DNA of 64,000 bases, taken from NCBI GenBank assembly GCA_043809085.1, contig JAZDEG010000010.1:11581-75580 (forward strand), in the 5' to 3' direction. The translations under genes and the position numbers were made by a program. Every line of letters starts with the position of its first letter. The first letter of the stretch is position 1. The DNA is from Pseudomonadota bacterium (GTDB taxonomy: Bacteria; Desulfobacterota; Desulfobulbia; Desulfobulbales; SURF-16). Of the stretch, positions 15,874 through 52,429 are shown piece after piece. The notes under the pieces are model-generated. The model saw only the letters and a program-made list of their open reading frames with translations. It was not told where the DNA came from and made no database searches.

Positions 15874-15874
15874 A

Positions 15875-16621
15875 TCAGTTATTCCGGGGTACACCGGGTG
15901 TTTGGATTTTTACATTGTCCGGCAACGCGCGCGGAGCAGGAACTCTTCTTGTCGCCGATGTCCGTCGACTGCTGACCGGGGCTGATGATTTTCTTGTGAC
16001 GGTTGCCCTTGTTTTGGGCGCAGCCTTGGGTTTTGGCGCTGGCGGTGGGGGAGCTATCCGATCCTTTTTCGGGTCGATGAGCATTTTTTCAATGGTTTCC
16101 TCCCCTTTCTGCAGGACAAGTTTTTCCGGTTCTATTGCTACAACTTTATACCCGCTAACCGTGTCTCCGGCAACCAGTTGTGTATAATTTCTTGGTTTCA
16201 GGGGCGCCGGAGCGTTCTTATTAGCGCCTATCGCTGCAGGAGGCGGGGTTTTCGGAGGAGGGTAGACGATCAACCCTTTACGGATATCACCGGCAATAAT
16301 CGACCCGGCATACGAAACCGTGGCTATGTCGACTGACACATCCTGACCATTGTCGGTGTCCGCAGCTTCTTCCTCATTGTCCCCTGGAAGAAACCTTTCG
16401 GCATTGAAGAGATATCCCTGGTTCAGGTCAGGCAAGGCTGCCGGCACGGGGGGATAGAAGACAACCTTTTTTTCCGGAGGGATAACAGGCTGCGGTTTCG
16501 CCTTTTTCGGCACGTTGGCATCGCCTGCATATTCATAGTCGGAACGGTAGGAAACCACCGCTTCCTTGACAAGAAAGAGGAAGGAAAGACTGAGAATGAC
16601 TGAGGCGATGATCTTAACCAT
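15875..16621 (-). CDS. Pro-rich bitopic membrane protein, possible GspC/PilP-like secretin partner
   Basis: 248 aa with an N-terminal TM segment (IIASVILSLSFLFLV). The middle segment GYKVVAIEPEKLVLQKGEETIEKMLID looks like a PilP/GspC HR-type beta domain. The tail is Pro/Lys/Arg-rich. The call rests on position and composition only. Confidence 0.3.
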   Translation of the reverse strand: MVKIIASVILSLSFLFLVKEAVVSYRSDYEYAGDANVPKKAKPQPVIPPEKKVVFYPPVPAALPDLNQGYLFNAERFLPGDNEEEAADTDNGQDVSVDIATVSYAGSIIAGDIRKGLIVYPPPKTPPPAAIGANKNAPAPLKPRNYTQLVAGDTVSGYKVVAIEPEKLVLQKGEETIEKMLIDPKKDRIAPPPPAPKPKAAPKTRATVTRKSSAPVSSRRTSATRRVPAPRALPDNVKIQTPGVPRNN

Positions 16622-17177
16622 TTGTAATTGTATAAAAACCTTTTATGTCGAGAAAAATTTTCATTTCTGATTTTTTATAGGGTTTCAAGGTAAAGCTTTC
16701 AATCTGAAAAAGTTTATCCGAGCGGTAAAGCTGGCTGATTAAATCCATAAACTGGCTCATGCTGCCTGACAGCCGAATCTTGATGGCAATTTCATGGAAA
16801 TCGCGGGGCGCGTTTCTGCCTCCCGTCACAAGCGGTCTGATCGATTCAGGTTCCAGACCGGCCCTTGTAACCTGTTCCTGAATCATTATCTGCATCGCTG
16901 AAGAAACCTCCTCCTCGGAAACGCCGGTGAAAAGGTATTTTTCCAGTTTTGCAGAACGCTGCTTGAGGCGGGCGACGCTTTTTTTCAGGGAAGGCAAGGA
17001 GGCTGCTGTTTCCTGATACTGTTCAAGAAGATTCTGATTGGCTTCCAGTTCTTTCTTCTGATCGCTGTACGTTCCAAGCGACAGGCGGACAATATTGACC
17101 AGCAGAAGAAGAGCGCCAAGGGTGAGAAGAAGAGCCTTCCGGTCAACACCTTTAAGCAGGAGGATGATCCGGTTCAT
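16614..17177 (-). CDS. gspM: GspM/PilO-like assembly-platform protein
   Basis: 187 aa. It has one N-terminal TM segment, then a coiled-coil region, then a ferredoxin-like C-terminal part (IAIKIRLSGSMSQFMDLISQL...FQIESFTL). Its position after the gspL-like gene fits. Confidence 0.5.
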   Translation of the reverse strand: MNRIILLLKGVDRKALLLTLGALLLLVNIVRLSLGTYSDQKKELEANQNLLEQYQETAASLPSLKKSVARLKQRSAKLEKYLFTGVSEEEVSSAMQIMIQEQVTRAGLEPESIRPLVTGGRNAPRDFHEIAIKIRLSGSMSQFMDLISQLYRSDKLFQIESFTLKPYKKSEMKIFLDIKGFYTITNG

Positions 17178-18322
17178 TTGCTGCTGACCTCCACATGAAA
17201 ATATGTCTGGTTTTTCCGACGGCTGGTGGACTTTAACTTCGCCTTGTTCAAGGCGTCGAGATTGCTGGTCAGATCCCCGATATCATCCGTATAACCCTGC
17301 AGCTGGATATCACCCGTTTTCTCGTCCATGCGGATCTGGTCGAGATAACTGTTTTTGGGCAGAGCCTTTGTCGCCTTTTCAAAAAAGCTGATGATGTCAA
17401 AATTCTGGCCGATTCCTTCAATACGCTCAATTGACTCGGTCAGCTGTTTATCTTCCAGGCGGAGCTGCTCCACCTCCTTGATCTGAGGCTGAAGCGCGGA
17501 AATTTCTCCGTCCGTCTTTTTTAGCTGATTGAGAATGGAATATTCCTTTATCGCCCCGACACCCAAAAAGGCACCCAGGTTGAGGATGCAAAGCCCGACG
17601 AGAACATAGCGTAGATAGTCCGGCCTTCGGTAGGAGGCAGGCAAAAGATTGAATTCCTTGTGCAGGGGCAATTCCGCGAGCAGAGCGGAGCTGTCCTGGA
17701 ATCCGCTGCCCTCATCCGGACTGGGGGTATAGATCACCTCCCCGGGGTCAAGTTTCTGCAATTGCTCGGCAGAAGGGGTGCTATGGCAGAGAATCCTGTC
17801 AAGGATGCTGTGTTCGGAAAAAATCAGCAGTTTTGTATAACGACCCGGCAACAAGAGGCTCCACCTCTTTTTTTTGCAGAGCCGGGTCACATAGCGCTGG
17901 CTTTCCGGGAAAAGGCCGACCAGGCGAAAGCCCTGTCCCGCCACTTCATCCAGCCATGGGGTCACTTTTTCTTCAAGCAGAGCGTAAAGGCTTATACTGT
18001 AATCCTGTTTTCCGCGGATAGCAGTGTAGCGGTGCAGCATTTTTCCTTCAAAGGGAGCAAGAATGGCCAGTTGATAGCCAACCGCCTCTTTGATATCTGC
18101 GGTTTTGAGCGGCAGACTGAAATTTTTGTAAAAAAGCAAATCCTCGGACAGGTAAAAAGAGACGTTCAGCCCTGATGGATTTTTGTCCTCACAGCAGCGG
18201 GTGACCCTTCTCCCCAGATCGGTGACAGGATGGGGAATAAATTCAGTCTCCTGTTTGAAAGGTGTGTGAATTTCAAGGCCGTCGGGCCTGATAAATATTT
18301 CGACACTCTCCTTCATGACCAC
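17174..18322 (-). CDS. gspL: GspL-like (PilM/PilN-type fusion) assembly-platform protein
   Basis: 382 aa. It has a cytoplasmic N-domain, a TM segment (YVLVGLCILNLGAFLGVGAI) and a periplasmic coiled-coil/PilN-like tail. It has 4-nt and 10-nt overlaps with its neighbours. Confidence 0.5.
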   Translation of the reverse strand: MVMKESVEIFIRPDGLEIHTPFKQETEFIPHPVTDLGRRVTRCCEDKNPSGLNVSFYLSEDLLFYKNFSLPLKTADIKEAVGYQLAILAPFEGKMLHRYTAIRGKQDYSISLYALLEEKVTPWLDEVAGQGFRLVGLFPESQRYVTRLCKKKRWSLLLPGRYTKLLIFSEHSILDRILCHSTPSAEQLQKLDPGEVIYTPSPDEGSGFQDSSALLAELPLHKEFNLLPASYRRPDYLRYVLVGLCILNLGAFLGVGAIKEYSILNQLKKTDGEISALQPQIKEVEQLRLEDKQLTESIERIEGIGQNFDIISFFEKATKALPKNSYLDQIRMDEKTGDIQLQGYTDDIGDLTSNLDALNKAKLKSTSRRKNQTYFHVEVSSK

Positions 18323-19299
18323 CCTTCTTCCCGAGAATAATAGTTTACTTTGGTGCCGTACAGTTCAAACAGGACTCGCACCTCATGTGCCACAGGAGGG
18401 GTGAGGGTGTCCTTTTCCCTTTCGGCAAGCTCCTGCTCGTCGACTCCGGTCTCACCCCGGACAACGATCGAATAGAACCTGTTGTTGCCGGAGTTATAGG
18501 TGAGGGCGTCTTTGACCTGACTGAACCGCTCCGCGCCGAGGATCTGCAGAGCGTGTTCCTGCCCCAGGTTGACATAAAGTTCTTTTGCCTCCCGGTAAGC
18601 GTTTTTTTTCTCCGCATCCCCTTCAGTCAGGAAATCAAGCATCAACGGGGAAAGACTGTTGAAGTTAACCAGGCCCGTGTCGTTGTGGGTGGTGAAGATA
18701 TCGCTCGCCCGAAATTTACCGGCAAGTGGATCTGTACCGTGAACCAGAAAAAACTCCGATGGCTCCATTATTTTACCGTTTCGGGGAATATAGGGATCAT
18801 CAAGAGCTTCATAGGTCTCCAGCTCAGCCCCATTCAGACGATGAAGGTTGTCACTGTCCTGCCAGTCATACAGCGAATCGATGATAATTTCCCGTTCAGG
18901 GGCGTCTATCTGCATATATTCCAAAAAAAGGTCCAAGAGATTCTTATTGAATTTATTCAAATCGATTTTACCAGATTCGTTCACTACATAGTAGCGCAAA
19001 TGTCCGGTGACAAGAAATGCGTCATATTCATACCCCTCGGCAAATGTTTCATATTCCTCATTAATATATTCCAGAGGCTTGTCAAGTATTCTGAATATTC
19101 CGAGATTCACTCCGGCTTCAGCAAGTGAAAGGCCTGCGGCCCGTTCCTTGGCATTGACGGCTATCCTCAGTTCAGTCCGCACATTCAGAATAAGCTGACC
19201 GGCAAGAAACGATATCAGCAGCATGATGACAATGACCACCAGCAGGGCAAATCCTTGCTGGCCGGCAGGTGATTGTCTTTTATGATAGCCCAGCGACAT
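18313..19299 (-). CDS. gspK: Minor pseudopilin GspK
   Basis: 328 aa. The prepilin-like N-terminus QQGFALLVVIVIMLLISFLAG lacks Glu+5, as is typical for GspK. The size and the helix-hairpin-helix-like middle region fit. Confidence 0.7.
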   Translation of the reverse strand: MSLGYHKRQSPAGQQGFALLVVIVIMLLISFLAGQLILNVRTELRIAVNAKERAAGLSLAEAGVNLGIFRILDKPLEYINEEYETFAEGYEYDAFLVTGHLRYYVVNESGKIDLNKFNKNLLDLFLEYMQIDAPEREIIIDSLYDWQDSDNLHRLNGAELETYEALDDPYIPRNGKIMEPSEFFLVHGTDPLAGKFRASDIFTTHNDTGLVNFNSLSPLMLDFLTEGDAEKKNAYREAKELYVNLGQEHALQILGAERFSQVKDALTYNSGNNRFYSIVVRGETGVDEQELAEREKDTLTPPVAHEVRVLFELYGTKVNYYSREEGWS

Positions 19300-19313
19300 G
19301 TTTGACGTTTTTC

Positions 19314-19664
19314 CTACAGTAAGGGCCGCAGTTTGAGAGAGGCCAGTTCTCCACTAGTGCTGCGCACCTCAAGCAGACGGAATTTATGTCCTTCTATGAA
19401 AAGGGTGGAATTTTCCTCCTGCTCCTCATACACTGCGCTTTCCGAACCGGTATATCTGGTGTCCAGACTGAAAGACACCATTTCGTCAAAAACGTTTGCC
19501 CGTATTTTCTCTACTCTGCCGATATTTTTCAAGGCAACAGAGAAACTTTCCAGGGTGGCCACGTATGCCAGCCCCAGAATGAGTACAGCAGCCAGCACCT
19601 CAAGCAGGGTAAAGCCCTTCTGGCTTTGTCCGGCAGCGGCTCTGCCACCCCTTTCAGATATCAT
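19314..19664 (-). CDS. gspI: Minor pseudopilin, GspI-like
   Basis: 116 aa with the prepilin cleavage/methylation motif KG|FTLLEVLAAVLILGLA, including Glu+5. Confidence 0.6.
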   Translation of the reverse strand: MISERGGRAAAGQSQKGFTLLEVLAAVLILGLAYVATLESFSVALKNIGRVEKIRANVFDEMVSFSLDTRYTGSESAVYEEQEENSTLFIEGHKFRLLEVRSTSGELASLKLRPLL

Positions 19665-20265
19665 CAGGTTGCGCTCCCATCACCCGCATCTCGGTCTGGC
19701 ACCAGGGGGTAAATTCATATTCCTTGCCGTCGTAAGTAACCAGCACGGAGTCACTGCCATCCTCGTAGGAAAAGGAGAGCGGCAGGCTTTTTTCAATCAG
19801 AATTTTCATGCTTTCATAATCCGGAATATAGTCCCCGGTGTAATCATTGTTATAAAAATCCCGTTTTTCCAGATAATAAAGGGAACCGCTGTCCGGATCG
19901 TAGCGGTATACAGCCAGGACGGTTCCGGCATTGGAATAGAGAAGGGGAGCACGAGTCGTCACCCTGAGCACGGTGTCGTCGGCAGAAATGGCAATTTTTT
20001 TGGTCTGACTGTCGTACAGCCCGCATTTTACCTGCCGCTGGAGAAGTCCCAGCAAGCCCTGTTCCCGTTCAATCTGGATAATTCTCTTATCCCCTTTTTC
20101 CGAAAATTTAATACTGACATTTAAAATGGAATAAATCATGGATGAAACCATGGCGAGCAGCAGGACCGCCACCATGACCTCAAAAAGGGTGAACCCACGT
20201 TCCTCCTTGTACCGGTGCCTGAGTGTCACCACCCTTGGTTCATCCATGACAGGGGCCTTATTCAA
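19654..20265 (-). CDS. gspJ: Minor pseudopilin, GspJ-like
   Basis: 203 aa with motif RG|FTLFEVMVAVLLLAMV. The size is typical of GspJ. It has a long (24-aa) leader. Confidence 0.55.
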   Translation of the reverse strand: MNKAPVMDEPRVVTLRHRYKEERGFTLFEVMVAVLLLAMVSSMIYSILNVSIKFSEKGDKRIIQIEREQGLLGLLQRQVKCGLYDSQTKKIAISADDTVLRVTTRAPLLYSNAGTVLAVYRYDPDSGSLYYLEKRDFYNNDYTGDYIPDYESMKILIEKSLPLSFSYEDGSDSVLVTYDGKEYEFTPWCQTEMRVMGAQPDDI

Positions 20266-20746
20266 CTATCGGTAAGCCGGTCAAGGCATCCAGGGCTATG
20301 GAACGGCTTCTGCTGCCCAGGGTAAAGGTCAAAATTGCCGGAGTGGCGGTTGATTGCGGGGTGAAATAAATGATTTCCGGGTTGATGGTGAGCTCGCTTT
20401 CCGGATTGAGATCAAGATTTTTCTCCTCCGCCTCCCCTGCGCCACTCTGCAGCAAAAAATTGTTTTCCTGCATACGTACTTCTATCTCCCGTCCTGAGGA
20501 AATCGCCTCCAAACGGATCGACCGAAGATTTGCCGTGATGGTTCCCATCTGTTTTCTGAAGTCAAGACCGGTGAGCAACCTGCTCAACTGAGGGGTGCTG
20601 ATTCCGGCCACAATTCCCAGCAGCACCAGCACGGTGAGCAATTCAAGCAGGGAAAAGCCTGCTTGACGCAATCGAGCCGGATAAAACCTTTGGTTTGGTA
20701 GCTCAGTCCGGTCCCGCATGAAAAGAAATTCCGCCTTATCCCGCAA
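20258..20746 (-). CDS. gspH: Minor pseudopilin, GspH/FimT-like
   Basis: 162 aa with motif AG|FSLLELLTVLVLLGIVAGIS. It lacks the GspG-type conserved core. Its leader is unusually long (up to 28 aa). Confidence 0.55.
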   Translation of the reverse strand: MRDKAEFLFMRDRTELPNQRFYPARLRQAGFSLLELLTVLVLLGIVAGISTPQLSRLLTGLDFRKQMGTITANLRSIRLEAISSGREIEVRMQENNFLLQSGAGEAEEKNLDLNPESELTINPEIIYFTPQSTATPAILTFTLGSRSRSIALDALTGLPIVE

Positions 20747-21959
20747 TGTCGTTAATGCTTAATATGACCGACAGCATGGAAACGACAATATACCCGGCGA
20801 TCAGGGCGATGGCGAGTATAAAGGCCGGCTCAACAAGGGAGATCAGTCTTTTGATCCTGGTGCGCAGTTCCTGGTCAAAATGGTCGGCAATCTGGCCGCA
20901 GACCTCCCCGACTTTCCCCGATTCCTCGCCAATGGAAAGCAGATCAACCGCCAGGCTCGGCAGCAGAGATTCTCCTTTCAGCTTCGAACTGACTCGCTGC
21001 CCCTCCTTGAGAGCCTCTGTTGCCCGGTGGAGCATCTTCTGAAATTGCTCATTGACCGCAATCCCTGTGCATATGCGCAGGGCCGTGGCCAGGTGGACAC
21101 CGTTATTGACCAGAACCTCAAGGGTACGAAAAATCCGCGTTGTTTCAAGCTCCCGGATAAACCCTGACAGTCCGGGAATTTTCAGGGACTGCCGATGATA
21201 AAGCTCTTTGCCCTCAGGAGTCCCCATATACCAGATAACCAGCGCAATCGGCCCGAAGATCAGAATAAGGGTGATGATAAGATGATCGGAGACAAATCCG
21301 GCCACCGCCATCATAAATGCCACATTGGCTGGAAGCTGCTGCCCGATCCCTTGAAACAGCACCTCAAATCGGGGCAGGATGGTGGTGATGAGTATAATGA
21401 CGGCGATGATACCGACGATGAGCAGGATAAGGGGATAGACCGATGCAGAGATGATAAATTGCTTGAGTTCCTGGAAGGTGGACTGGTATTCCGAAATTTT
21501 GTTCAGCATGGCCGGGAGAATACCGCCTTCCTCTCCCGCCCTGGCGATGTTGATATACATGGGGGAAAAATAGGGGTAGTCGGCAAGGGCCTGGGAAAAA
21601 GATTTGCCTTCCTTGAGTTTCCGTTCCAGGGAGCCGCAGAACTCTTTAAAGGACGCTTTCTGGCTGTGATTTTTCATCACCCGCAGGGCGGCATCAAGGG
21701 AAAGTCCGGCACTGAGCAGCATGGCGATCTGTTTTGTGAAAAAATCGATTTCCGTGCGGGTAATTTTACCCCGATGAAAATCGAGAAAGGCGGGAAGTTT
21801 GAGCTGTTTAGAGGAACCCGGAGTGTATGATTTTATTTCCAGGGGGCGGAGACCCTGCACCATCAGTTTCTTTGCCACCGCCCCTTTGTCGACTTCCTCC
21901 AGCACTCCCTCCTTGATCGATCTGTCGCCGTCAACTGCCTTGTATTTAAAGAGCGGCAT
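20736..21959 (-). CDS. gspF: Type II secretion inner-membrane platform protein GspF
   Basis: 407 aa with two T2SSF repeats and three TM segments. The N-terminus MPLFKYKAVD is characteristic of GspF/PilC. Confidence 0.9.
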   Translation of the reverse strand: MPLFKYKAVDGDRSIKEGVLEEVDKGAVAKKLMVQGLRPLEIKSYTPGSSKQLKLPAFLDFHRGKITRTEIDFFTKQIAMLLSAGLSLDAALRVMKNHSQKASFKEFCGSLERKLKEGKSFSQALADYPYFSPMYINIARAGEEGGILPAMLNKISEYQSTFQELKQFIISASVYPLILLIVGIIAVIILITTILPRFEVLFQGIGQQLPANVAFMMAVAGFVSDHLIITLILIFGPIALVIWYMGTPEGKELYHRQSLKIPGLSGFIRELETTRIFRTLEVLVNNGVHLATALRICTGIAVNEQFQKMLHRATEALKEGQRVSSKLKGESLLPSLAVDLLSIGEESGKVGEVCGQIADHFDQELRTRIKRLISLVEPAFILAIALIAGYIVVSMLSVILSINDIAG

Positions 21960-23664
21960 TGGTAACTCCGCGGCTCACCCTGATAACCTCAGCCAGAGTG
22001 GTTTGTCCCGTTTTTATCTTTCGCAGGCCGTCCTGGTACATATCCTGGAAACCTTCCGCCTGGGCAATTTCTTTCAGTTCCCCCAGGTCCTTTCTTTTGG
22101 CCACCGCACGACACAAAGCATCACTCATGATGAGCAGCTCATAGATTCCGATCCGACCGCTGTACCCGCTGCTCGAGCAGTGGCTGCATCCGGCGCCGAT
22201 GAACATTTCAAAGTCGCCGCCTGTCGGGACATAACCGAGATGTTCGGAAATATTGCCCTGGGTGGTTCGGCAATGGGGACAGATGCGGCGGACAAGTCGC
22301 TGCGCCAATACTCCCCGCAGGGCGGAGGAGATGAGGAAATGTTCCACCCCGATGTCAATCATACGGACAACAGCGGATAGAGCGTCGTTGGTGTGCAGGG
22401 TGCTGAAGACAAGATGGCCTGTCAGGGATGACTGGACGGCAATTTCCGCTGTGTCCAGATCCCTGATCTCCCCCACCATGATGATATCCGGATCCTGGCG
22501 GACAATGGAGCGGAGCCCCTTGGCAAATGTCAGCCCGATTTCCGGACGGACTTGGGTCTGGTTGATTCCTTTCAGCTGATATTCAACCGGGTCTTCCAGA
22601 GTAATGATTTTGTTGGTGCCGGTATTGATTTTGTTAAGGGCGCAATAAAGGGTGGTGGTCTTGCCGCTGCCGGTGGGGCCCGTGACCAGGATGATGCCGT
22701 TGGGATAGGTGATCAGTTCCCTGAATTTCCGTTCAATATCATCGCCCATGCCGAGATGACTCATCTCAAGAATGATCGATCCTTTTTCCAGAATACGGAT
22801 AACCACGCCTTCTCCGTAAATTGACGGCATGGTCGAGACGCGCAGATCGATCTCCTTGCCGCCGATGCGCATGGATATTTTGCCGTCCTGGGGGATTCGT
22901 CTTTCCGCAATGTCGAGTGAGGCGAGAAGTTTGGTACGGGAAATGATAGCCGCCTGCATCGGTGTCGGCGGAATTTCATAATCATGGAGAATGCCGTCGA
23001 TACGGAAACGGATCAACTGCCCGCCCTCGTAAGATTCAATGTGAATGTCGCTGGCCCGCCGGTTTACCGCCGTGTCTATCAGGTTATTGACATATTTGAT
23101 GACCGGCGCCTCGGAAGCCATGTCCTTCAACTTGTCGATGTCCGCTTCGTCCATCACAGCCTGTTCCTGCTCAACTTCATCAAGGCCGAGATCATACTGT
23201 TCGTCGACTATTTTCTTGACATCCTTTTCCAGGGCGATTTGAATTTCGAATGGTTCGGCAACGTCGATCTGGGCCGTGGAAAGAATGTCTCCATCCATCG
23301 GATCATGGCAGACTAAGATAATGTCATTGTCATTACGCCGGACAAGGGCGAAGGGGTGCTCTCGGTGGAAAATTTTTGAGATGGAGACAGGGATGAAGAT
23401 GTCATCTTCACGAGGGACGAATATCTGCAGAGACAGCTGTTCGGAAAGGGCAACGAGAAGGTCATCCTCGCTGATGAACCCCAGGGACACGAGAATGTCT
23501 CCGAGTCCCTGGGGAACTGATTCAAGATGGGTCAGGGCACGTTCCAACTGATTGGGCTGCAGCTTGCCTTTCCGGACAAGCAGATCCCCCAGTTTTTCTT
23601 TCTTGGCAAAGAATACGGTCATGGGGCCTCTTTCAGGGCGTACCCCGTTCATTCCAAGTCGCAT
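21946..23664 (-). CDS. gspE: Type II secretion ATPase GspE
   Basis: 572 aa. Walker A: VTGPTGSGKTTTLY. Asp box and Walker B: IIMVGEIRD. His box: GHLVFSTLHTN. Tetra-Cys Zn site: CPHC...CSHC. It has an N-terminal T2SSE_N-type domain. ATG 23622 is an alternative start. Confidence 0.9.
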   Translation of the reverse strand: MRLGMNGVRPERGPMTVFFAKKEKLGDLLVRKGKLQPNQLERALTHLESVPQGLGDILVSLGFISEDDLLVALSEQLSLQIFVPREDDIFIPVSISKIFHREHPFALVRRNDNDIILVCHDPMDGDILSTAQIDVAEPFEIQIALEKDVKKIVDEQYDLGLDEVEQEQAVMDEADIDKLKDMASEAPVIKYVNNLIDTAVNRRASDIHIESYEGGQLIRFRIDGILHDYEIPPTPMQAAIISRTKLLASLDIAERRIPQDGKISMRIGGKEIDLRVSTMPSIYGEGVVIRILEKGSIILEMSHLGMGDDIERKFRELITYPNGIILVTGPTGSGKTTTLYCALNKINTGTNKIITLEDPVEYQLKGINQTQVRPEIGLTFAKGLRSIVRQDPDIIMVGEIRDLDTAEIAVQSSLTGHLVFSTLHTNDALSAVVRMIDIGVEHFLISSALRGVLAQRLVRRICPHCRTTQGNISEHLGYVPTGGDFEMFIGAGCSHCSSSGYSGRIGIYELLIMSDALCRAVAKRKDLGELKEIAQAEGFQDMYQDGLRKIKTGQTTLAEVIRVSRGVTNAAL

Positions 23665-48509: not shown

Positions 48510-51500
48510 TTGAAAATGAATTCGATGAAATCATTAAAATACTGGAAAAGGTTTGAGTGTGAAGGGCTGGCGATTTTTGTTGATCCCCGGAAGCCCGACT
48601 GGTTTGTTCCGGATCATAAGGCCGATGCGCTCCTTTGCGGCAATGATTGCGAGGGGGAAAGGGATCTGCTTGCCAAGGCCCGGCTTTTTTCCTTTGCCGA
48701 GAGATCGTCGGCCGACGAATATACCGGCCGGAAAAACTCTCTCCAACTCTCTTTATTAAAAGAGTGCTGGTTCCATCTTACCAATGCTTGCAACCTCGCC
48801 TGCCGCCATTGTCTTTTCAGCGCCTCGCCTTCAGCAACCCATGAGGCCCTTGATCCCGGAGATCTTGAACGGGGCATCAGGGAAGCGCGTGCGCTGGGCT
48901 GCACCCTTTTTTATTTCACCGGCGGCGAACCCTTTGTCTATCCGGAATTTCCTGCCATTCTCCGCGGCCTGCTTGAAGATCCTGATGTGCATGCGGTGGT
49001 GTTGACCAACGGCCTGCTGCTGGAAAAGCACGGAGAGTTGTTCGCCAAGATCCCCAGGGAAAGGCTTCATCTGCAGGTCAGCCTCGACGGTCTGGAAAAA
49101 AATCATGACGCCCTGCGGGGTAAAGGGACTTTTGCCCGATTGGCGTCGGGTCTCGATTTTCTCCACCGGACAGGAATCCATGTCACCTTATCTGTTGCCG
49201 TCAATCAAAGCAATGTCAAGGAGCTTTCCGCTGTCACCGGTTTTGCCGCAGACAAGGGCATACGAAACATCCATTTTCTCTGGCATTTTGTCCGGGGCAA
49301 AGGGAGCCGTGACCAGTTCGTTCCTGCCGCGGAGATATGGACTCATCTGAGACCCGCTCTGGAGACTGCTGAAGCAGCAGGCATAACAGTGGATAATGTC
49401 GAGGCGTTAAGGGGGCAGGTTTTCGCCTCTCCCGGAACACGGCATGATCTCAGCAACAGCGGCTGGGAGTCTATTGCCGTGGGGCCTGACGGAGCGATTT
49501 ATCCTTCGCCTGCCCTGGTGGGTATTGACGATCTCCGCTGTGGTTTTCTAGGCGAGGGACTTGAAAACGTGTGGCGCCAAAGCCCAGTGCTTGAAGATGT
49601 GCGGCAGGCAACCCTGGCTGGCAGCGCTTATGAGAAGAATCCCCTCAAATTTCTCGTTGGCGGCGGGGATATTGATCACAGCTTTATCAGTGGCGGAAAT
49701 TTCGTCGGCCATGATCCTTATGTGGAATTATACAACAATATCGCCCTCTGGCTCATTGCCCGCCGGGCGAGGCGTTATCCCCACAGGGAAGATGGATCTA
49801 TCCTGCTGAAAATGGGCGATGTTCGCTCTGATTGCCCGGATGGAGGAAGCGACGTGTCGCTCACCCATTGCAACTGTGTGGTTTCCCTGGCCGATGACCG
49901 GGGTCATTCAACGGTGCGGGATTTTTACGGCCGTGCCGCTGTTGAGGCCAATGATGAGATTGTCAATCCATTTGCCGCAAAACAGGCGGAGGCCGAGTTT
50001 ATTCCGGCGGTTTCCCGGCAGAGGTCCTACGGTTGCGGCAGTCCCGTGCATGATGCCGGGCTTACGCAAGGCGAGGTGCTGGTTGATCTCGGCAGCGGCA
50101 GCGGCGTCGAATGTTTTCAGGCGGCTGAAATGGTGGGGGAATCCGGTCGTGTGTTCGGCATCGACATGACCGATGCCATGCTCTCGCTCGCCCGCTCGTC
50201 GCAAAAACAGGTGGCCGCGAATCTCGGCTATAATAATATTGAATTCAAAAAAGGCTTTCTCGAATCAATTCCCCTGGAAGACTGCTCGGCCGATGCGGTT
50301 ATCTCAAACTGCGTCATCAATTTAAGCCCGGACAAGCGGCAGACCCTGCATGAAGCCTTCCGCATTCTGAAGCCCGGCGGACGTCTGGTGGTTTCGGATA
50401 TCGTCACGGATGAACAGATTCCGGTGCGAATCAAAAATAATGAAAAACTGCGGGGAGAATGTCTGGGCGGGGCCATGCAGCAGGAGGATCTCATGGCCAT
50501 GCTGCGCGCAGCGGGATTCACCGCAATCAGACTGGTCAAGCGGTTTCCCTACCGACTGGTGGGCGACACCAGTTTTTATTCCTTGACCTTTATCGCCTAT
50601 AAGCCTGGCCCGGCTGAAGAGGTGGAGATTATATACCGGGGCCCATTCGGAGCGGTTTATACGGAAAGCGGGGTATTGCTGCTGAAAGGGAAAAAAATGC
50701 GGATTGCCGTAACCGATTTCGCCGGACTCGATGATTCCGTTTTTGTTGTCGACGGGCAGGGCGCGGTCGTCAATGTCAGCCAGACCGACGGTTGCTGCGG
50801 CCTGCCGCCGGAAAATTCCGCAGCGCCTGCCGTCTCCTGCTGCCCCACCACAACCGCGAAGGGTCGGCAGCACAGCGACTGTATGGTCTGCGGCAACGAG
50901 TTGCGCTATTTCACCAGGGAACGGAACGCCACATGCCACTACTGCGGCGAGCAGAAGGATGCCAACGCCACATGCCTGAACGGCCATTTCGTCTGTGACG
51001 GCTGCCATCAGGACAAGGGACTTGCGGTGATCAAGAAGATATGCACCGAATCAGCGGTTGAAGACATGATCACCCTGCTCAAAAAAATCAGATCGCACCC
51101 TGCCATCTCCATGCATGGACCGGAACATCACGCCATGGTTCCCGGCATTATTCTTTCCGCTTATCGGGCACGGGGCGGCAAGGTGGGGAAAGATGAAATC
51201 CGCACCGCAATAGAGCGGGGGAGCAGGGTACCCGGCGGAGTCTGCGGATTCTGGGGTGGTTGCGGGGCGGCAATCGGGGTTGGCATCGCCTTTTCCGTGA
51301 TCATTGAGGCAACGCCCCTGACCCCGGTAAAGCGCCAGAAAGCGCAGCAGACCACGGCGAAAATACTGGAAAAAATAGCTGGATTTCAGGCCGGGCGCTG
51401 TTGCCAGCGGGAGACGGTGATCGCACTTACAGAGGCGGCTCGCCTGTCGGGAGGTGTTCTGCAGGTATCTCTTTTGGCCGCTGACACCTTGCAATGCAGC

Positions 51501-51602
51501 CAGTATCCGATGAATCGCGAGTGTATCCGGAAAACCTGCCTGCTTTGGGAGAGCCGTGACAAAAACGCGGAGTCGGGGCAGCCTCTCGCCCTGGTGATCT
51601 GA
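48510..51602 (+). CDS. Tri-domain fusion protein: radical-SAM domain, ArsM-type SAM methyltransferase and C-terminal Cys-rich domain
   Basis: 1030 aa in one uninterrupted frame. CNLACRHC lies at nt 48789-48812. ArsM-like motifs are SYGCGSP, VLVDLGSGSGVE, ISNCVINL and GECLGGAM (nt ~49914-50580). The Cys-rich tail spans nt ~50879-51602. The track start is TTG 48510. ATG 48516 and ATG 48525 are alternatives. Confidence 0.75.
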   Translation: MKMNSMKSLKYWKRFECEGLAIFVDPRKPDWFVPDHKADALLCGNDCEGERDLLAKARLFSFAERSSADEYTGRKNSLQLSLLKECWFHLTNACNLACRHCLFSASPSATHEALDPGDLERGIREARALGCTLFYFTGGEPFVYPEFPAILRGLLEDPDVHAVVLTNGLLLEKHGELFAKIPRERLHLQVSLDGLEKNHDALRGKGTFARLASGLDFLHRTGIHVTLSVAVNQSNVKELSAVTGFAADKGIRNIHFLWHFVRGKGSRDQFVPAAEIWTHLRPALETAEAAGITVDNVEALRGQVFASPGTRHDLSNSGWESIAVGPDGAIYPSPALVGIDDLRCGFLGEGLENVWRQSPVLEDVRQATLAGSAYEKNPLKFLVGGGDIDHSFISGGNFVGHDPYVELYNNIALWLIARRARRYPHREDGSILLKMGDVRSDCPDGGSDVSLTHCNCVVSLADDRGHSTVRDFYGRAAVEANDEIVNPFAAKQAEAEFIPAVSRQRSYGCGSPVHDAGLTQGEVLVDLGSGSGVECFQAAEMVGESGRVFGIDMTDAMLSLARSSQKQVAANLGYNNIEFKKGFLESIPLEDCSADAVISNCVINLSPDKRQTLHEAFRILKPGGRLVVSDIVTDEQIPVRIKNNEKLRGECLGGAMQQEDLMAMLRAAGFTAIRLVKRFPYRLVGDTSFYSLTFIAYKPGPAEEVEIIYRGPFGAVYTESGVLLLKGKKMRIAVTDFAGLDDSVFVVDGQGAVVNVSQTDGCCGLPPENSAAPAVSCCPTTTAKGRQHSDCMVCGNELRYFTRERNATCHYCGEQKDANATCLNGHFVCDGCHQDKGLAVIKKICTESAVEDMITLLKKIRSHPAISMHGPEHHAMVPGIILSAYRARGGKVGKDEIRTAIERGSRVPGGVCGFWGGCGAAIGVGIAFSVIIEATPLTPVKRQKAQQTTAKILEKIAGFQAGRCCQRETVIALTEAARLSGGVLQVSLLAADTLQCSQYPMNRECIRKTCLLWESRDKNAESGQPLALVI

Positions 51603-51604
51603 TT

Positions 51605-52429
51605 ATGCCGGAACTGCCTGAGGTTGAAGTCATCCGCCAGGGTCTGCTGTCCCATGTGGTCGGCTGTTTCGTTGTCTCCATTACCTGTTCCGACAAAAAC
51701 CTGCGCCTGCCGCTGCCAAAGTCGGCGTTGCAGGAGTGGGTCAAAGGGCACAGGATCAACGGCATCATCCGGCGCGGGAAATATCTCCTTTTTTCCCTTG
51801 ATAACGGAGCGGGAATGATCGCTCATCTGGGCATGAGCGGGAAACTCGGGATTTTTCCAGCCGCAGTCCCTGCAGCTCTTCACGATCACGTTGTTTTCAG
51901 CTTTGATGACACCATGCAGATGCGATACAACGATACCCGGCGTTTCGGGTTTATCCAGGTGTTTCCTCCCGGGCGTCTCGAAAAATCCGACCCCTTTGCC
52001 AACCTTGGCCGAGAACCGCTCGGGGATGATTTTAACGGCGCCTATCTCAAGGAGATGGCGGGGAAACGTTTGCAGCCGGTGAAAAATTTTCTCCTGGACA
52101 GCCGCATGATTGCCGGCATCGGAAACATTTACGCCAATGAAATACTCTTTTACAGCGGAATACATCCGGCTACGCCGGTGGGCTCAATCAGCCGCAGAAA
52201 ATGGGATGCGGTAGCCGATGTCACCCGCACGGTATTGACCCGGGCCATTGCCTGCGGCGGCAGCACCATCAGCGATTTCGTCAACAGCTCAGGCAAAAAA
52301 GGCTACTTCCAGCTTGAATTGATGGTTTATGGACGAGTCGGGGAAAGGTGCAACCACTGTTCAACCGTTATCGGCAAACAGGTGATCGGCGGGAGGAGTA
52401 CTTTTTTCTGTCCTGTCTGCCAGAAATAG
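51605..52429 (+). CDS. mutM: Formamidopyrimidine-DNA glycosylase
   Basis: 274 aa. The N-terminus is MPELPEVE and the C-terminal zinc finger is CNHC...CPVCQ. Confidence 0.95.
   Translation: MPELPEVEVIRQGLLSHVVGCFVVSITCSDKNLRLPLPKSALQEWVKGHRINGIIRRGKYLLFSLDNGAGMIAHLGMSGKLGIFPAAVPAALHDHVVFSFDDTMQMRYNDTRRFGFIQVFPPGRLEKSDPFANLGREPLGDDFNGAYLKEMAGKRLQPVKNFLLDSRMIAGIGNIYANEILFYSGIHPATPVGSISRRKWDAVADVTRTVLTRAIACGGSTISDFVNSSGKKGYFQLELMVYGRVGERCNHCSTVIGKQVIGGRSTFFCPVCQK

Follow-up and report, generated by a model that had tools for sequence, protein, structure and literature searches.

Locus and gene arrangement

The window (the whole stretch of DNA analysed, 64,000 nt) carries a single open reading frame in which a radical-SAM domain, an ArsM-type methyltransferase and a Cys-rich C-terminal part are joined. 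The frame and all motifs placed in it by the initial annotation were confirmed coordinate by coordinate, and the claimed three-module layout is real; Pfam Radical_SAM, Methyltransf_31 and DUF5714 are all matched. The features are the following.

48510..51602, + strand: fusion ORF, 1030 aa from TTG 48510
48510..48761, + strand: N-terminal cap, aa 1-84 (AF2 model and alignment)
48762..49499, + strand: radical-SAM core, aa 85-330 (CxxxCxxC and GGEP)
49467..49829, + strand: degenerate SPASM region, aa ~320-440 (GPDGAIYPSPAL ... VGGGDIDHS)
49830..49889, + strand: inter-domain segment, aa 441-460 (D-C442-PDGG ... H453-C454-N-C456)
49896..50801, + strand: ArsM-type SAM methyltransferase, aa 463-764 (Pfam, NCBIfam, PDB alignment)
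50793..50843, + strand: vicinal-cysteine linker (C762-C763, C777-C778)
50880..51008, + strand: double zinc-ribbon-like motif, aa 791-833 (Cys/His pattern)
51030..51545, + strand: DUF5714 domain, aa 841-1012 (Pfam, 7e-59)
51605..52429, + strand: mutM (Fpg)

Two in-frame ATGs follow TTG 48510, at 48516 and 48525. The latter is probably the true start, giving 1025 aa; it is used by the database copy of the protein (P0001, 1025 aa) and fits the N-termini of homologues. The start of mutM lies 2 nt past the fusion stop codon, and the two genes are probably co-transcribed. Between rph and the fusion lie 118 nt. Synteny of the fusion extends to rph, tgt, yajC, mutM and bioFB, with mutM adjoining it in 33 of the 85 related loci.

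The annotation of the window covers the ORFs at 32-63 kb, all of them housekeeping, and about half of those below 32 kb. In line with the initial annotation, none of the annotated ORFs is arsR, acr3, arsB, arsC or another ars gene, and no ars gene was seen in those relatives' loci that have called genes. GT2, DUF2064 and DedA genes were searched in the 64-kb window and none was found. Among the annotated neighbours there is no link to arsenic beyond the fusion's own sequence.

Radical-SAM module

In the AF2 model the cap is built of three strands followed by helices (aa 13-63). Its residues W12 and P29-D30-W31 are invariant, and it may be the remnant of a peptide-recognition (RRE-like) element. 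The core (Pfam Radical_SAM, aa 90-232, 2.8e-20) carries CNLACRHC at nt 48789-48812, which is the CxxxCxxC motif with Cys94/98/101, and the invariant SAM-binding motif GGEP (aa 138-141).

The initial annotation described a SPASM-like stretch devoid of its cysteines, and the wider family bears this out: distant members read DG.VYPCPAL...CxxC...CGGGC, the window protein DGAIYPSPAL...VGGGD. Seven auxiliary-cluster Cys of the distant relatives are replaced, and Cys344, the sole Cys left in the region, is not conserved family-wide. Judged by sequence, the radical-SAM domain of the N-terminal module derives from the SPASM type; it keeps the CxxxCxxC [4Fe-4S]/SAM site, but both auxiliary-cluster sites are gone. 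C442 and C456 of the following inter-domain segment are kept across most of the wider family, and the segment, modeled with low AF2 confidence (aa 441-460), may bind a metal or metalloid.

The best structural matches of the domain are the SPASM/twitch enzymes SkfB, CteB, anSME, SuiB and PqqE (Foldseek E 1e-15 to 1e-12, TM about 0.6-0.75 on target). An HMM alignment with the mycofactocin maturase MftC (aa 88-403) extends across the SPASM region, and distant family members retain a complete CxxCx5Cx3C and are recognised by Pfam SPASM. However, unlike these enzymes, the window clade has neither the auxiliary-cluster Cys nor a peptide substrate gene nearby, and the NCBIfam scores are all far under the cut-offs. 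The enzymes of nearest structure abstract a peptide hydrogen and perform no radical addition to metalloids, an observation that counts against a synthase reading of the protein.

Kinship of the domain to ArsS and ArsL holds at the superfamily level only. Identity to a bona fide ArsS is 27% over a 150-residue cluster-binding core, and neither the ArsS model (TIGR04167) nor the ArsL model (NF040542) is among the best 25 NCBIfam matches. Nothing points to the domain making a 3-amino-3-carboxypropyl radical as in ArsL.

ArsM-type methyltransferase

The middle module (Pfam Methyltransf_31, aa 520-669, 2.5e-32) holds VRDFYG, an intact class I SAM-binding motif (motif I, LVDLGSGSG) and the ArsM C-terminal domain. 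Its suggested ArsM type is supported by the five best NCBIfam matches, all arsenite-methyltransferase or ArsM-fusion models, and by the best PDB matches, which are ArsM structures (2.7e-43 to 6e-34). PRK11873 arsenite methyltransferase is the top match with 228 bits, compared with 85 bits for the next unrelated methyltransferase family, but this is under its 263-bit cut-off, and none of the NCBIfam models tried on the fusion protein attains its own. ArsM-type enzymes act on further soft metalloids in addition to arsenic.

Like CmArsM/AS3MT (4fr0, 4kw7, 5evj, 8xt7), the module is of class I SAM fold and has both the ArsM C-terminal domain and a tail rich in CC. When aligned to CmArsM (4fr0/4kw7) by HMMER, Cys509 (50034-50036), Cys601 (50310-50312) and Cys651 (50460-50462), in YGCGSP, ISNCVINL and GECLGGA, fall on Cys72/174/224, the three Cys by which CmArsM binds trivalent arsenic. 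The three metalloid-binding Cys claimed earlier are therefore in place. They are invariant in 35 close homologues and retained in most members down to ~35% identity, in either fusion order.

Unlike CmArsM/AS3MT, the module is set between two further modules and lacks the Cys44-type residue. The absence of this fourth Cys had been noticed initially and holds in 35/35 aligned close homologues; in the alignment with Chlamydomonas ArsM (5evj), the stretch opposite its Cys44 segment reads NDEIVNPFAAK and contains no Cys. The three-Cys state is present, but it is a derived trait of the DUF5714-bearing clade: 129/132 DUF5714-bearing proteins are without any Cys at this position, while most DUF5714-less, distant members keep a CC pair there. 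Family-wide, the pair is lost where DUF5714 is gained.

Linker, zinc ribbon and DUF5714

In the flexible linker C762-C763 is invariant and C777-C778 is ~90% conserved. Bacterial ArsMs have similar CC..CC tails, and the region of the selenoprotein MbdU to which the linker aligns is reported to bear CU motifs. The Cys-rich tail of the initial annotation is partly what it was taken for. CMVC-x14-CHYC-x9-C-x6-CDGC (C791/794/809/812/822/829/832) belongs to the double zinc-ribbon-like motif, whose residues C791, C794, C809, C812 and C822, H826, C829, C832, H833 are all invariant; the remainder is the existing Pfam family DUF5714.

The DUF5714 match is full-length (198.7 bits vs the 26.2-bit cut-off). 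The domain is helical, with invariant H869, H873, H874, C912, C918, R963-C964-C965, C996, C1005 and C1010; GVCGFWGGCGAAIG contains C912 and C918, and GRCCQ contains C964 and C965. No structural match for its fold was found in the PDB. Elsewhere DUF5714 is joined to another radical-SAM type or forms a stand-alone protein. Residues 759-1019 of the fusion match MbdU (metal-binding double selenoprotein) over its first 272 positions, but membership was rejected with 124-129 bits vs the 600-bit cut-off and no selenocysteine. Alignment of GGxCGFxGxCGAAxG and RCCQ to the C_GCAxxG_C_C family is weak (hhalign probability 34%; homology unproven).

Distribution and neighbourhoods of the family

A survey of public genomes, as the initial annotation had proposed, found the fusion widely. 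More than 120 independent database proteins (55-79% identity) are full-length homologues in the same single frame, and the radical-SAM module has homologues in 80 species-level genomes, most of them with the full fusion, so that it is not a sequencing or assembly artefact. The carriers are Desulfobulbales nearly throughout, cable bacteria included. The fusion is a widely conserved enzyme of sulfur-cycling sediment bacteria, and its gene seems to be vertically inherited across the entire order. We found no published description of the family in the literature. The rSAM-ArsM order forms many clusters at 50% identity, and P0178, P0179 and P0183 have the reversed order, ArsM-rSAM/SPASM; their coexistence would support functional coupling of the two catalytic domains.

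Several relatives have TIGR04283 or TIGR04282 glycosyltransferases close by. The canonical partner of these enzymes is ArsS, and their 'arsenosugar' names are themselves deduced from adjacency to it. In L087 a GT2 gene lies directly upstream in the same operon (269.5 bits to TIGR04283, cut-off 182), and L088 has at the same operon position a GT2 assigned by its homology to that of L087 (54% identity, tblastn). L039, a Desulfobulbales locus whose fusion is 58% identical to that of the window, carries TIGR04283 (259 bits) and TIGR04282 (207 bits) 3.4 kb off, and L084, whose fusion has three modules, encodes TIGR04282 and TIGR04283 as one fused protein 1.5 kb off. These two are the only ones of ~80 Desulfobulbales-type loci with such glycosyltransferases within 6 kb. 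In L089 weaker TIGR04282/TIGR04283 matches are close by, and the gene immediately downstream encodes a PiT-type phosphate transporter, and therefore an arsenate transporter too.

Conversely, ArsS occurs in 17/80 glycosyltransferase-anchored metagenome loci (one copy with 469.5 bits to TIGR04167) and the fusion in 0/80, while ArsS was found in 0/95 fusion-related loci and not in the window. The initial idea of organoarsenical biosynthesis thus gains independent support: glycosyltransferases above NCBI cut-offs stand beside relatives of the fusion where ArsS is absent. Other neighbours are an undecaprenyl-phosphate-transporter-like DedA gene directly downstream of the fusion in 13 loci, flippase-like and DedA genes in the L087/L088 operon, and C_GCAxxG_C_C proteins as separate genes in the L087/L088 operons. 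A PF03773-family permease near the fusion relative of L093 was rejected as a specific ArsP (75 bits to SaoE).

Function and alternative explanations

We suggest that the three modules together form a self-contained synthase of an organo-metalloid, most likely organoarsenical, compound, an assignment from sequence that we hold with slightly better than even confidence. The fusion would thereby be a functional counterpart of the ArsS/ArsM and ArsL/ArsM pairs built on a different radical-SAM lineage. Vertical inheritance across an order in a housekeeping context is, however, unusual for arsenic metabolism and could mean another physiological substrate. As in ArsS/ArsM of the arsenosugar pathway, reportedly first shown in Synechocystis, radical-SAM and ArsM-type methyltransferase activities are combined; the fusion has Cys-rich accessory regions, too, and is adjoined in relatives by the same glycosyltransferase families. 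However, unlike in that pair, both activities reside in one polypeptide, the radical-SAM part comes from the SPASM type and has no counterpart of the Cys/Sec-rich C-terminal domain of ArsS, and the ArsM part is without the Cys44-type residue and has a zinc ribbon and DUF5714 added.

The same chemistry might serve Se, Te, Sb or Hg, or sulfur species of the sulfur-disproportionating Desulfobulbales, which we regard as unlikely. The closest non-structural relatives of the methyltransferase and C-terminal parts are selenoprotein families (ArsM/AhpD, ArsM/DUF2284, UXPK-star, and MbdU, which has CU motifs), an order defined by sulfur metabolism carries the gene widely and in housekeeping context, and MerA occurs in 14/80 TIGR04283-anchored loci, which makes that neighbourhood unspecific for arsenic. 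Yet the sole experimentally characterised partners, ArsM, ArsS and ArsL, work on arsenic, the Cys triad has the geometry of an As(III) site, and the transporter of L089 is directly downstream. It is quite improbable that the fusion modifies a peptide or protein (RiPP-type), both domains acting on the same peptide and the ArsM likeness being ancestral. The nearest structures (sactisynthases, anSME, SuiB, ChlB, PqqE), the best NCBIfam radical-SAM matches (peptide maturases, mycofactocin and ScmE/F-type enzymes), the cap and the full SPASM motif of distant members would fit this. However, the flanking gaps leave no space for a precursor gene, no conserved small ORF adjoins the gene in 85 loci, the auxiliary clusters required by peptide-crosslinking enzymes are gone in the window clade, a peptide methyltransferase has no reason to retain metalloid-binding Cys, and arsenosugar-type glycosyltransferases lie close by in relatives.

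Little probability is likewise left to a housekeeping role without metalloid, such as cofactor, lipid or nucleic-acid modification with a structural or Fe-S Cys triad. Conservation and synteny across Desulfobulbales and the DedA and flippase-like neighbours favour it. Nevertheless, known housekeeping methyltransferase families score nowhere near the ArsM models, and lipid-related neighbours fit an arsenosugar-lipid product equally well. More improbable still is a detoxifying ArsM that volatilises arsenic, in which radical-SAM and DUF5714 would only assist as redox or chaperone parts, without C-As chemistry of a new kind. Families in which ArsM is joined to a redox or metal-binding domain (AhpD, DUF2284) exist in NCBIfam, the weak motif-level likeness of DUF5714 to the 'redox-active' C_GCAxxG_C_C proteins fits a reductant role, and the permease of L093 is in keeping with it. 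Against this, that permease is no specific ArsP, no ars gene was seen among the annotated ORFs of the window or in relatives' loci with called genes, loss of Cys44 speaks against efficient methylation of inorganic As(III), and the CxxxCxxC/GGEP site is intact and invariant over the deep family, which argues for catalysis rather than an accessory role.

Proposed mechanism of the putative synthase

Most likely the fusion makes a carbon-arsenic compound via a route so far undescribed; its substrate, product and order of steps are those we infer as follows. Trivalent arsenic would be captured by vicinal thiols of the CC..CC linker, the RCC of DUF5714 and/or C442/C456, and handed over to the Cys509/601/651 site. 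The radical-SAM domain would cleave SAM reductively to a carbon radical, by default 5'-deoxyadenosyl, which would add to As(III) with formation of the C-As bond, as in ArsS and ArsL. Methylation would follow in the ArsM module, with SAM as donor of the methyl group(s) in an SN2 reaction. This should yield a compound of the 5'-deoxy-5'-(methyl/dimethyl)arsinoyl-adenosine type, from which arsenosugars or arsenolipids would derive.

As the Cys44-type residue is missing, either the radical step goes first and the ArsM module methylates an organoarsenical, or DUF5714/linker thiols substitute for Cys44 as ligand and disulfide partner. In the arsinothricin pathway, also served by a radical-SAM enzyme and ArsM, formation of the C-As bond by ArsL precedes methylation of the organoarsenical by ArsM, an order that would suit an ArsM module without Cys44. 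In CmArsM the step from As(III) to MAs(III) requires the full set of four Cys, but Cys44 and Cys72 are dispensable for MAs(III) to DMAs(III) (PMC6138428), and the radical-first order put forward in the initial annotation would be compatible with these mutant data. The RCCLKC tail of ArsL binds As(III) (bioRxiv 10.1101/2024.02.01.577332) and may serve as a precedent for As(III) binding by Cys motifs of radical-SAM enzymes. Comparable vicinal Cys of the window protein are those of RCCQRE and CC..CC, although its RCC lies inside DUF5714 and that of ArsL at the C-terminal tail. The presence of DUF5714 where Cys at the Cys44 position is lost looks like a pattern of compensation.

Overall organization of the fusion

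We suggest that the window protein is an organoarsenical synthase, a reading that we hold, from sequence and from analogy to known enzymes, with slightly better than even confidence. The observation of the initial annotation, a radical-SAM (rSAM), an ArsM-type and a Cys-rich module in one frame, is confirmed, and its interpretation as an organo-metalloid biosynthetic enzyme is partly supported.

The ORF at 48510..51602 (+) encodes 1030 aa from a TTG start in the ORF listing. In-frame ATGs are at 48516 and 48525, and the start at 48525 agrees with the database copy of the protein (P0001, 1025 aa) and with homologue N-termini. All motifs quoted in the initial annotation are present at their positions by coordinate check. 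Pfam divides the protein into Radical_SAM at aa 90-232, Methyltransf_31 at aa 520-669 (2.5e-32) and DUF5714 at aa 841-1012, and no NCBIfam model attains its cut-off on aa 1-460 or on the whole protein. G+C is even over the fusion gene and its neighbours (0.52-0.58).

Features of the fusion ORF. Those with a strand were located by coordinate.
48789-48812, (+), CNLACRHC with Cys94/98/101
D-C442-PDGG ... H453-C454-N-C456, segment between the two catalytic domains; C442 and C456 kept in most of the wider family
50034, (+), Cys509 of the ArsM triad
50310, (+), Cys601 of the ArsM triad
50460, (+), Cys651 of the ArsM triad
C762-C763 (invariant) and C777-C778 (about 90% conserved), CC..CC linker after the ArsM C-terminal domain
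C791/794/809/812/822/829/832, (+), CMVC-x14-CHYC-x9-C-x6-CDGC, double zinc-ribbon-like array after the CC..CC linker
aa 841-1012, helical DUF5714 (PF18978) with invariant H869, H873, H874, C912, C918, R963-C964-C965, C996, C1005 and C1010
C912 and C918, (+), within GVCGFWGGCGAAIG
C964 and C965, (+), within GRCCQ

Conservation and distribution

In a 5.8-billion-protein collection, more than 120 proteins of 995-1110 aa match the window protein with 55-79% identity, 93-100% query coverage and identical Pfam architecture. Desulfurivibrio, Desulfobulbaceae, Desulfocapsa, Thiovibrio and related MAGs are their sources; where a protein has a name, it is no more than 'DUF5714 domain-containing protein', 'methyltransferase domain-containing protein' or 'radical SAM protein'. 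When one genome per species was scanned with an alignment of the rSAM domain, 80 loci emerged, all in Desulfobulbales (Desulfurivibrionaceae, Desulfocapsaceae, Desulfobulbaceae, Candidatus Electrothrix) save for two Paludibacter-binned contigs and a single Desulfuromusa MAG. Most of the 80 carry the full three-module ORF; a genuine two-module form, ending after the CC..CC tail, is found in five, and one further locus looks frameshifted. The survey of public genomes that had been proposed thus recovers the same fusion widely, and the recurrence of the single frame in these proteins and genomes rules out an assembly or frameshift artefact. The fusion looks vertically inherited across the order.

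Sec read-through was considered for the short relatives of about 790 aa and is ruled out: past the CC..CC tail their frames close with a TAA, TAG or TGA stop, and no DUF5714-like sequence lies in frame beyond it. At one Desulfobulbales MAG locus (L067, 5794-8241 and downstream) the frame of the fusion closes behind the CC tail, with the zinc-ribbon/DUF5714 part resuming in another frame; it looks like a frameshifted pseudogene or an assembly error.

The N-terminal radical-SAM module

PF04055 scores 73.6 bits on the window protein (cut-off 29.5 bits), and C94/C98/C101 and G138-G139-E140-P141 are invariant in the aligned homologues. With CxxxCxxC, GGEP and a partial TIM-barrel fold in the AlphaFold2 (AF2) model, the module has the features of the radical SAM superfamily. 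The N- and C-terminal modules were modelled separately; the N-terminal model (pLDDT 82, pTM 0.85) is matched by Foldseek to SkfB, CteB, anSME, ChlB, SuiB and PqqE with E of 1e-15 to 2e-12. Likewise, aa 1-460 alone match only SPASM/twitch-type NCBIfam families, with the Rv1681 family first (99 bits, cut-off 380), followed by ScmE/F, the mycofactocin maturase (aa 88-403), StsB, AlbA and NirJ; all these scores are far under the cut-offs.

The seven-Cys SPASM pattern (C-x9-15-G-x4-C ... CxxCx5Cx3C ... C), which goes with two auxiliary [4Fe-4S] clusters, is missing from the window protein. The initial annotation had described a SPASM-like stretch without its usual Cys, and this holds: YPS and VGGGD stand for YPC and CGGGC, as the window protein reads DGAIYPSPAL ... 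VGGGD and its distant relatives, some of which pass Pfam SPASM, read DG.VYPCPAL ... CxxC ... CGGGC. Since the fold and the HMM alignment still run through the Cys-less region, we describe it as a degenerate SPASM domain. The CxxCx5Cx3C motif is absent from all DUF5714-bearing members.

The rSAM domain is neither ArsS nor ArsL. Among the best 25 NCBIfam matches of aa 1-460 there is no TIGR04167 (ArsS), and no ArsL model (NF040542) among the best 25 either; BLASTP against a verified ArsS (L138, a metagenome locus) gives 35.8 bits and 27% identity, limited to the 150-residue cluster-binding core. The window protein does not match the TIGR04167 model, which includes a C-terminal Cys/Sec-rich domain. 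ArsL is defined by an RCCLKC tail on its rSAM domain (bioRxiv 10.1101/2024.02.01.577332), and unlike in ArsL, the sole RCC motif of the window protein (R963-C964-C965-QRE) sits inside DUF5714.

Ahead of the core lies an N-terminal cap (48510-48761, aa 1-84) with no Pfam match. In the AF2 model it is composed of three strands and then helices, with invariant W12 and P29-D30-W31, and the modelled cap recalls the peptide-recognition element found in RiPP rSAM enzymes.

The ArsM-type module

The middle module is of the ArsM type, as had been proposed. LVDLGSGSG (motif I) is invariant in the aligned homologues, as in a class I SAM methyltransferase. The best NCBIfam match of the whole protein is the PRK11873 arsenite methyltransferase (228.1 bits over aa 484-683), a score under the 263-bit cut-off with profile positions 42-236 of 272 matched. 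It leads other families by a wide margin: five more ArsM-type models rank after it, and the best of the unrelated methyltransferase families, DVU_1556, reaches 85 bits. The best PDB sequence matches are ArsM structures as well (5evj, 2.7e-43; 8xt7; 4kw7/4fr0, about 4e-35). The arsinothricin ArsM model matches aa 589-764, hence the ArsM C-terminal domain is present.

ArsM holds As(III) by conserved cysteines and moves methyl groups from SAM. In the HMMER alignment to 4fr0/4kw7, Cys509/601/651 fall on CmArsM Cys72/174/224, which confirms the correspondence proposed earlier; the triad is invariant in alignments of 23 and of 35 homologues and is kept in most of the distant members. The missing Cys44-type residue is also confirmed. 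Opposite the Cys44 region the window protein has NPFAAK, none of the homologues in the two alignments has a Cys at that position, and the interval from VRDFYG to YGCG is free of Cys both in the window protein and in 129 of 132 DUF5714-bearing homologues. All four ArsM Cys are needed for As(III) -> MAs(III), while Cys44 and Cys72 are dispensable for MAs(III) -> DMAs(III) (PMC6138428).

Linker, zinc ribbon and DUF5714

DUF5714 scores 198.7 bits against a gathering threshold of 26.2, over profile positions 1-172 of 173. The AF2 model of the C-terminal part (pLDDT 81 overall) is confident from the zinc ribbon on, the CC..CC linker is disordered, and a structural search of the PDB with this model gave no match (best E 0.5). 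NCBIfam aligns aa 759-1019 to the first 272 of 468 positions of MbdU (NF045648), with 124-129 bits against a requirement of 600, so that the protein falls outside that family. MbdU is listed with two selenocysteines in CU motifs (2026 review, PMC13188914), whereas the window protein has CC pairs in the matched region and an uninterrupted frame. The likeness of DUF5714 to C_GCAxxG_C_C proteins is at motif level only (hhalign probability 34%, E 4e-4).

DUF5714 is also found fused to an rSAM domain of the HMPTM type, with an HMPTM-like N-terminal zinc ribbon and no methyltransferase (P0210, P0215 and P0268; L092 351-2567). Its presence on another rSAM type suggests that it may be a general accessory module of rSAM enzymes rather than of ArsM.

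The wider family and its cysteines

Five architectures were found in the wider family by exhaustive HMMER search over 1.84 billion cluster representatives, followed by domain scans.

Architectures of the wider family.
(a) rSAM-ArsM-zinc ribbon-DUF5714, down to 38% identity
(b) rSAM-ArsM, about 780-850 aa
(c) reversed, ArsM-rSAM with an intact SPASM domain, about 705 aa (P0178, P0179, P0183)
(d) DUF5714 with the different, HMPTM-type rSAM domain (P0210, P0215, P0268)
(e) stand-alone zinc ribbon-DUF5714 proteins, about 240 aa

The ArsM triad is kept in nearly all members of (a)-(c). The same two catalytic domains are fused in both orders, which by the classical argument is evidence of joint work.

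In distant two-module and reversed members a CC pair (consensus EL-CC-P) precedes the YGCG Cys by 24-27 residues; it occupies the Cys44 position, where the window clade reads EIVNPF. In a motif-based cross-tabulation of 154 rSAM+ArsM proteins, 129 of the 132 with DUF5714 have neither a Cys at the Cys44 position nor the SPASM CxxCx5Cx3C. Most proteins without DUF5714 retain the Cys44-position Cys, and the most distant also retain the SPASM motif.

Tiers of cysteine retention.
Tier 1: SPASM intact, CC present
Tier 2: SPASM lost, CC present
Tier 3: SPASM lost, CC lost, zinc ribbon/DUF5714 gained; includes the window protein

The label 'three-Cys ArsM' given in the initial annotation therefore stands as to the absent Cys44-type Cys and needs amending as to its origin: with a CC pair in the distant members, it is a derived state which coincides with the gain of DUF5714.

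Three further proteins (P0212, P0220, P0263) have the same rSAM type, with C442/C456-type Cys, fused to a methyltransferase without the ArsM triad, which has Asn at the Cys601 position. They are a sister architecture, perhaps with another substrate.

Genomic context

The fusion lies between rph and mutM among housekeeping genes, and the annotated ORFs of the window include no ars gene, as the initial annotation had noted. Upstream are alaS, recA, cinA, a MiaB-like gene, mnmA, a U32 peptidase gene, ParA-like ATPase genes, an HDOD histidine kinase gene, yajC, tgt and rph; downstream are mutM, bioF, bioB, pcnB, an NMO-family gene, rpsA, sppA and a Sua5/TsaC-family gene. The window holds no ArsS and, by tblastn, no GT2, DUF2064 or DedA gene. 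Rfam at gathering thresholds finds no RNA family (tRNA, riboswitch or other) on either strand of the whole window (1-64000), hence no riboswitch upstream of the fusion, and promoter and terminator scans give counts no higher than in shuffled sequence. The secretin, T2SSF and T2SSE genes at 13576-23664 (-), of a type II secretion or type IV pilus-like apparatus, look ordinary and are unrelated to the fusion.

The mutM (Fpg) start is 2 nt past the fusion stop (51600-51607), so that the two genes are probably co-transcribed. Clustering of ORFs from 85 related loci shows a mutM-like ORF downstream in 33 (L001, L003, L004 and others) and a DedA/VTT gene in 13, plus lineage-specific synteny; beyond these, the clustering reveals no conserved partner or precursor-peptide gene. 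The adjacency to mutM may be synteny alone or may be functional, for example in repair of damage from arsenic or radical chemistry.

The DedA/VTT gene is directly downstream of the fusion in 13 Desulfurivibrionaceae loci (L001, L003, L011-L015, L018-L020, L023, L025, L032). In the reversed-fusion operons the DedA protein is weakly similar to the undecaprenyl-phosphate transporter UptA. These neighbours hint at a lipid-linked or exported product.

DedA/VTT genes at four loci.
L001 13192-13872
L003 11248-11931
L087 2789-3487
L088 3668-4375

Arsenosugar-type neighbours are present at several relatives. At L087 and L088 the reversed fusion closes a conserved operon in the order YdjY-domain protein, DedA (UptA-like), flippase-like, C_GCAxxG_C_C, unknown protein, GT2, fusion, and the L087 GT2 scores 269.5 bits (cut-off 182) against TIGR04283, 'arsenosugar biosynthesis glycosyltransferase'. 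L039 (Desulfobulbales) has a two-module fusion with 58% identity to the window protein, with TIGR04283 (259 bits) and TIGR04282 (207 bits, cut-off 134) genes 3.4 kb upstream on the opposite strand. At L084 a fused TIGR04282-TIGR04283 protein is encoded 1.5 kb downstream of a three-module fusion (47% identity). At L089-L091, where the fusion is of the two-module type, genes for a PiT-type phosphate transporter and a DUF2064 protein come directly after it and a GT2 gene lies alongside; the DUF2064 protein and the GT2 match TIGR04282/TIGR04283 best, with scores under the cut-offs. An ArsP neighbour at L093 was downgraded as arsenic evidence, its low NCBIfam scores pointing to SaoE / SO_0444-type permeases.

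The link was also examined in reverse, with the TIGR04283 glycosyltransferase as anchor in 80 loci of metagenome contigs. DUF2064 is present in 27, ArsS-like rSAM in 17 (one of these genes, L138, was verified with 469.5 bits against TIGR04167), MerA in 14, stand-alone ArsM in 5 and the fusion in none. With ArsS at 17 and the fusion at 0 of the 80, we regard the link of fusion and glycosyltransferase as real but uncommon. ArsS is absent from all 95 fusion-related loci, and together with the neighbours of the relatives this puts the fusion in the place of ArsS+ArsM in a minority of arsenosugar-type clusters. Most Desulfobulbales have it on its own.

MerA (mercuric reductase; at L158 8703-10346, 947 bits against PRK13748) is about as frequent near the TIGR04283 gene as ArsS, and the genes around it may form a metal or metalloid island of wider scope. 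The C_GCAxxG_C_C proteins of the reversed-fusion operons are at L087 4432-4866 and L088 5279-5716. NCBIfam has a similar pair in NF045669 and NF045667, families for the consecutively numbered Desulfovibrio DVU_1555 (C_GCAxxG_C_C) and DVU_1556 (ArsM-like methyltransferase), which suggests that the Cys-rich 'GCAxxG' protein is a recurrent partner of ArsM-like enzymes.

Proposed mechanism and alternative readings

ArsS works by a radical mechanism on the 5'-deoxyadenosyl C-S bond of SAM. The synthesis of arsenosugars begins with the joint action of ArsS and ArsM (PMC8552651). In ArsL, As(III) sits on the RCCLKC tail and receives the 3-amino-3-carboxypropyl radical of SAM, and ArsM methylates the product afterwards (bioRxiv 10.1101/2024.02.01.577332). 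By analogy, we propose the following scheme for the window protein.

Step 1: The vicinal thiols would capture a trivalent metalloid.

Step 2: The N-terminal domain would form the C-As bond with a SAM-derived radical. The loss of both SPASM clusters would fit a reaction in which no electron has to be taken from a substrate radical; addition of a radical to the As(III) lone pair would be one.

Step 3: Methylation would take place at the Cys509/601/651 site. The loss of the Cys44 pair favours this order, radical first and methyl second. Alternatively, linker or DUF5714 thiols would stand in for the Cys44-type pair, as suggested by the anti-correlation of DUF5714 with Cys44 and by the separate C_GCAxxG_C_C genes of the L087/L088 operons.

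A fuller picture, which we offer tentatively and consider rather doubtful as a whole, would be a third, independently recruited, SPASM-derived rSAM lineage without auxiliary clusters that forms C-As or other C-metalloid bonds. In Desulfobulbales, including cable bacteria, it would be welded to a three-Cys ArsM and DUF5714 in an apparently vertically inherited, widely conserved protein. DUF5714 and the CC linker would be a new metalloid-relay/redox module replacing the lost Cys44-type pair, and the product a constitutive organoarsenical (an arsenosugar or arsenolipid precursor) of normal physiology, not of resistance.

Four other readings were considered: a RiPP-type peptide maturase, plain arsenic detoxification, the same chemistry on another soft element (Se, Te, Sb, Hg or sulfur species), and an unrelated housekeeping role. 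The last two stay in play, since the gene neighbourhood in the window says nothing either way and inheritance of the family across an order looks vertical; however, none of the four accounts jointly for the invariant ArsM triad, the fusion in both orders and the arsenosugar-type neighbours.

Novelty and significance

An rSAM enzyme with ArsM is already known as a route to organoarsenicals, and to our knowledge the only C-As-forming rSAM enzymes are ArsS and ArsL, each with a separate ArsM. In the window family the rSAM lineage, the single polypeptide, the accessory domain and the Desulfobulbales home would be new; no paper in full-text literature searches mentions DUF5714 or an rSAM/ArsM fusion. 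If the organoarsenical reading is true, this is a third, non-orthologous solution to the C-As bond, and being in one polypeptide it is convenient for studying metalloid hand-over between the radical and methyl-transfer sites. It would also offer a first clue to what DUF5714 does, and perhaps to the role of the related C_GCAxxG_C_C and MbdU proteins; we know of no function for any of the three. Desulfobulbales would then be likely organoarsenical producers; these sulfur-cycling and cable bacteria are abundant in sediments, paddy soils and aquifers, settings in which toxicity and mobility are governed by the speciation of arsenic. The anti-correlation between the Cys44-position Cys and DUF5714 is open to direct test by mutagenesis and domain swaps.
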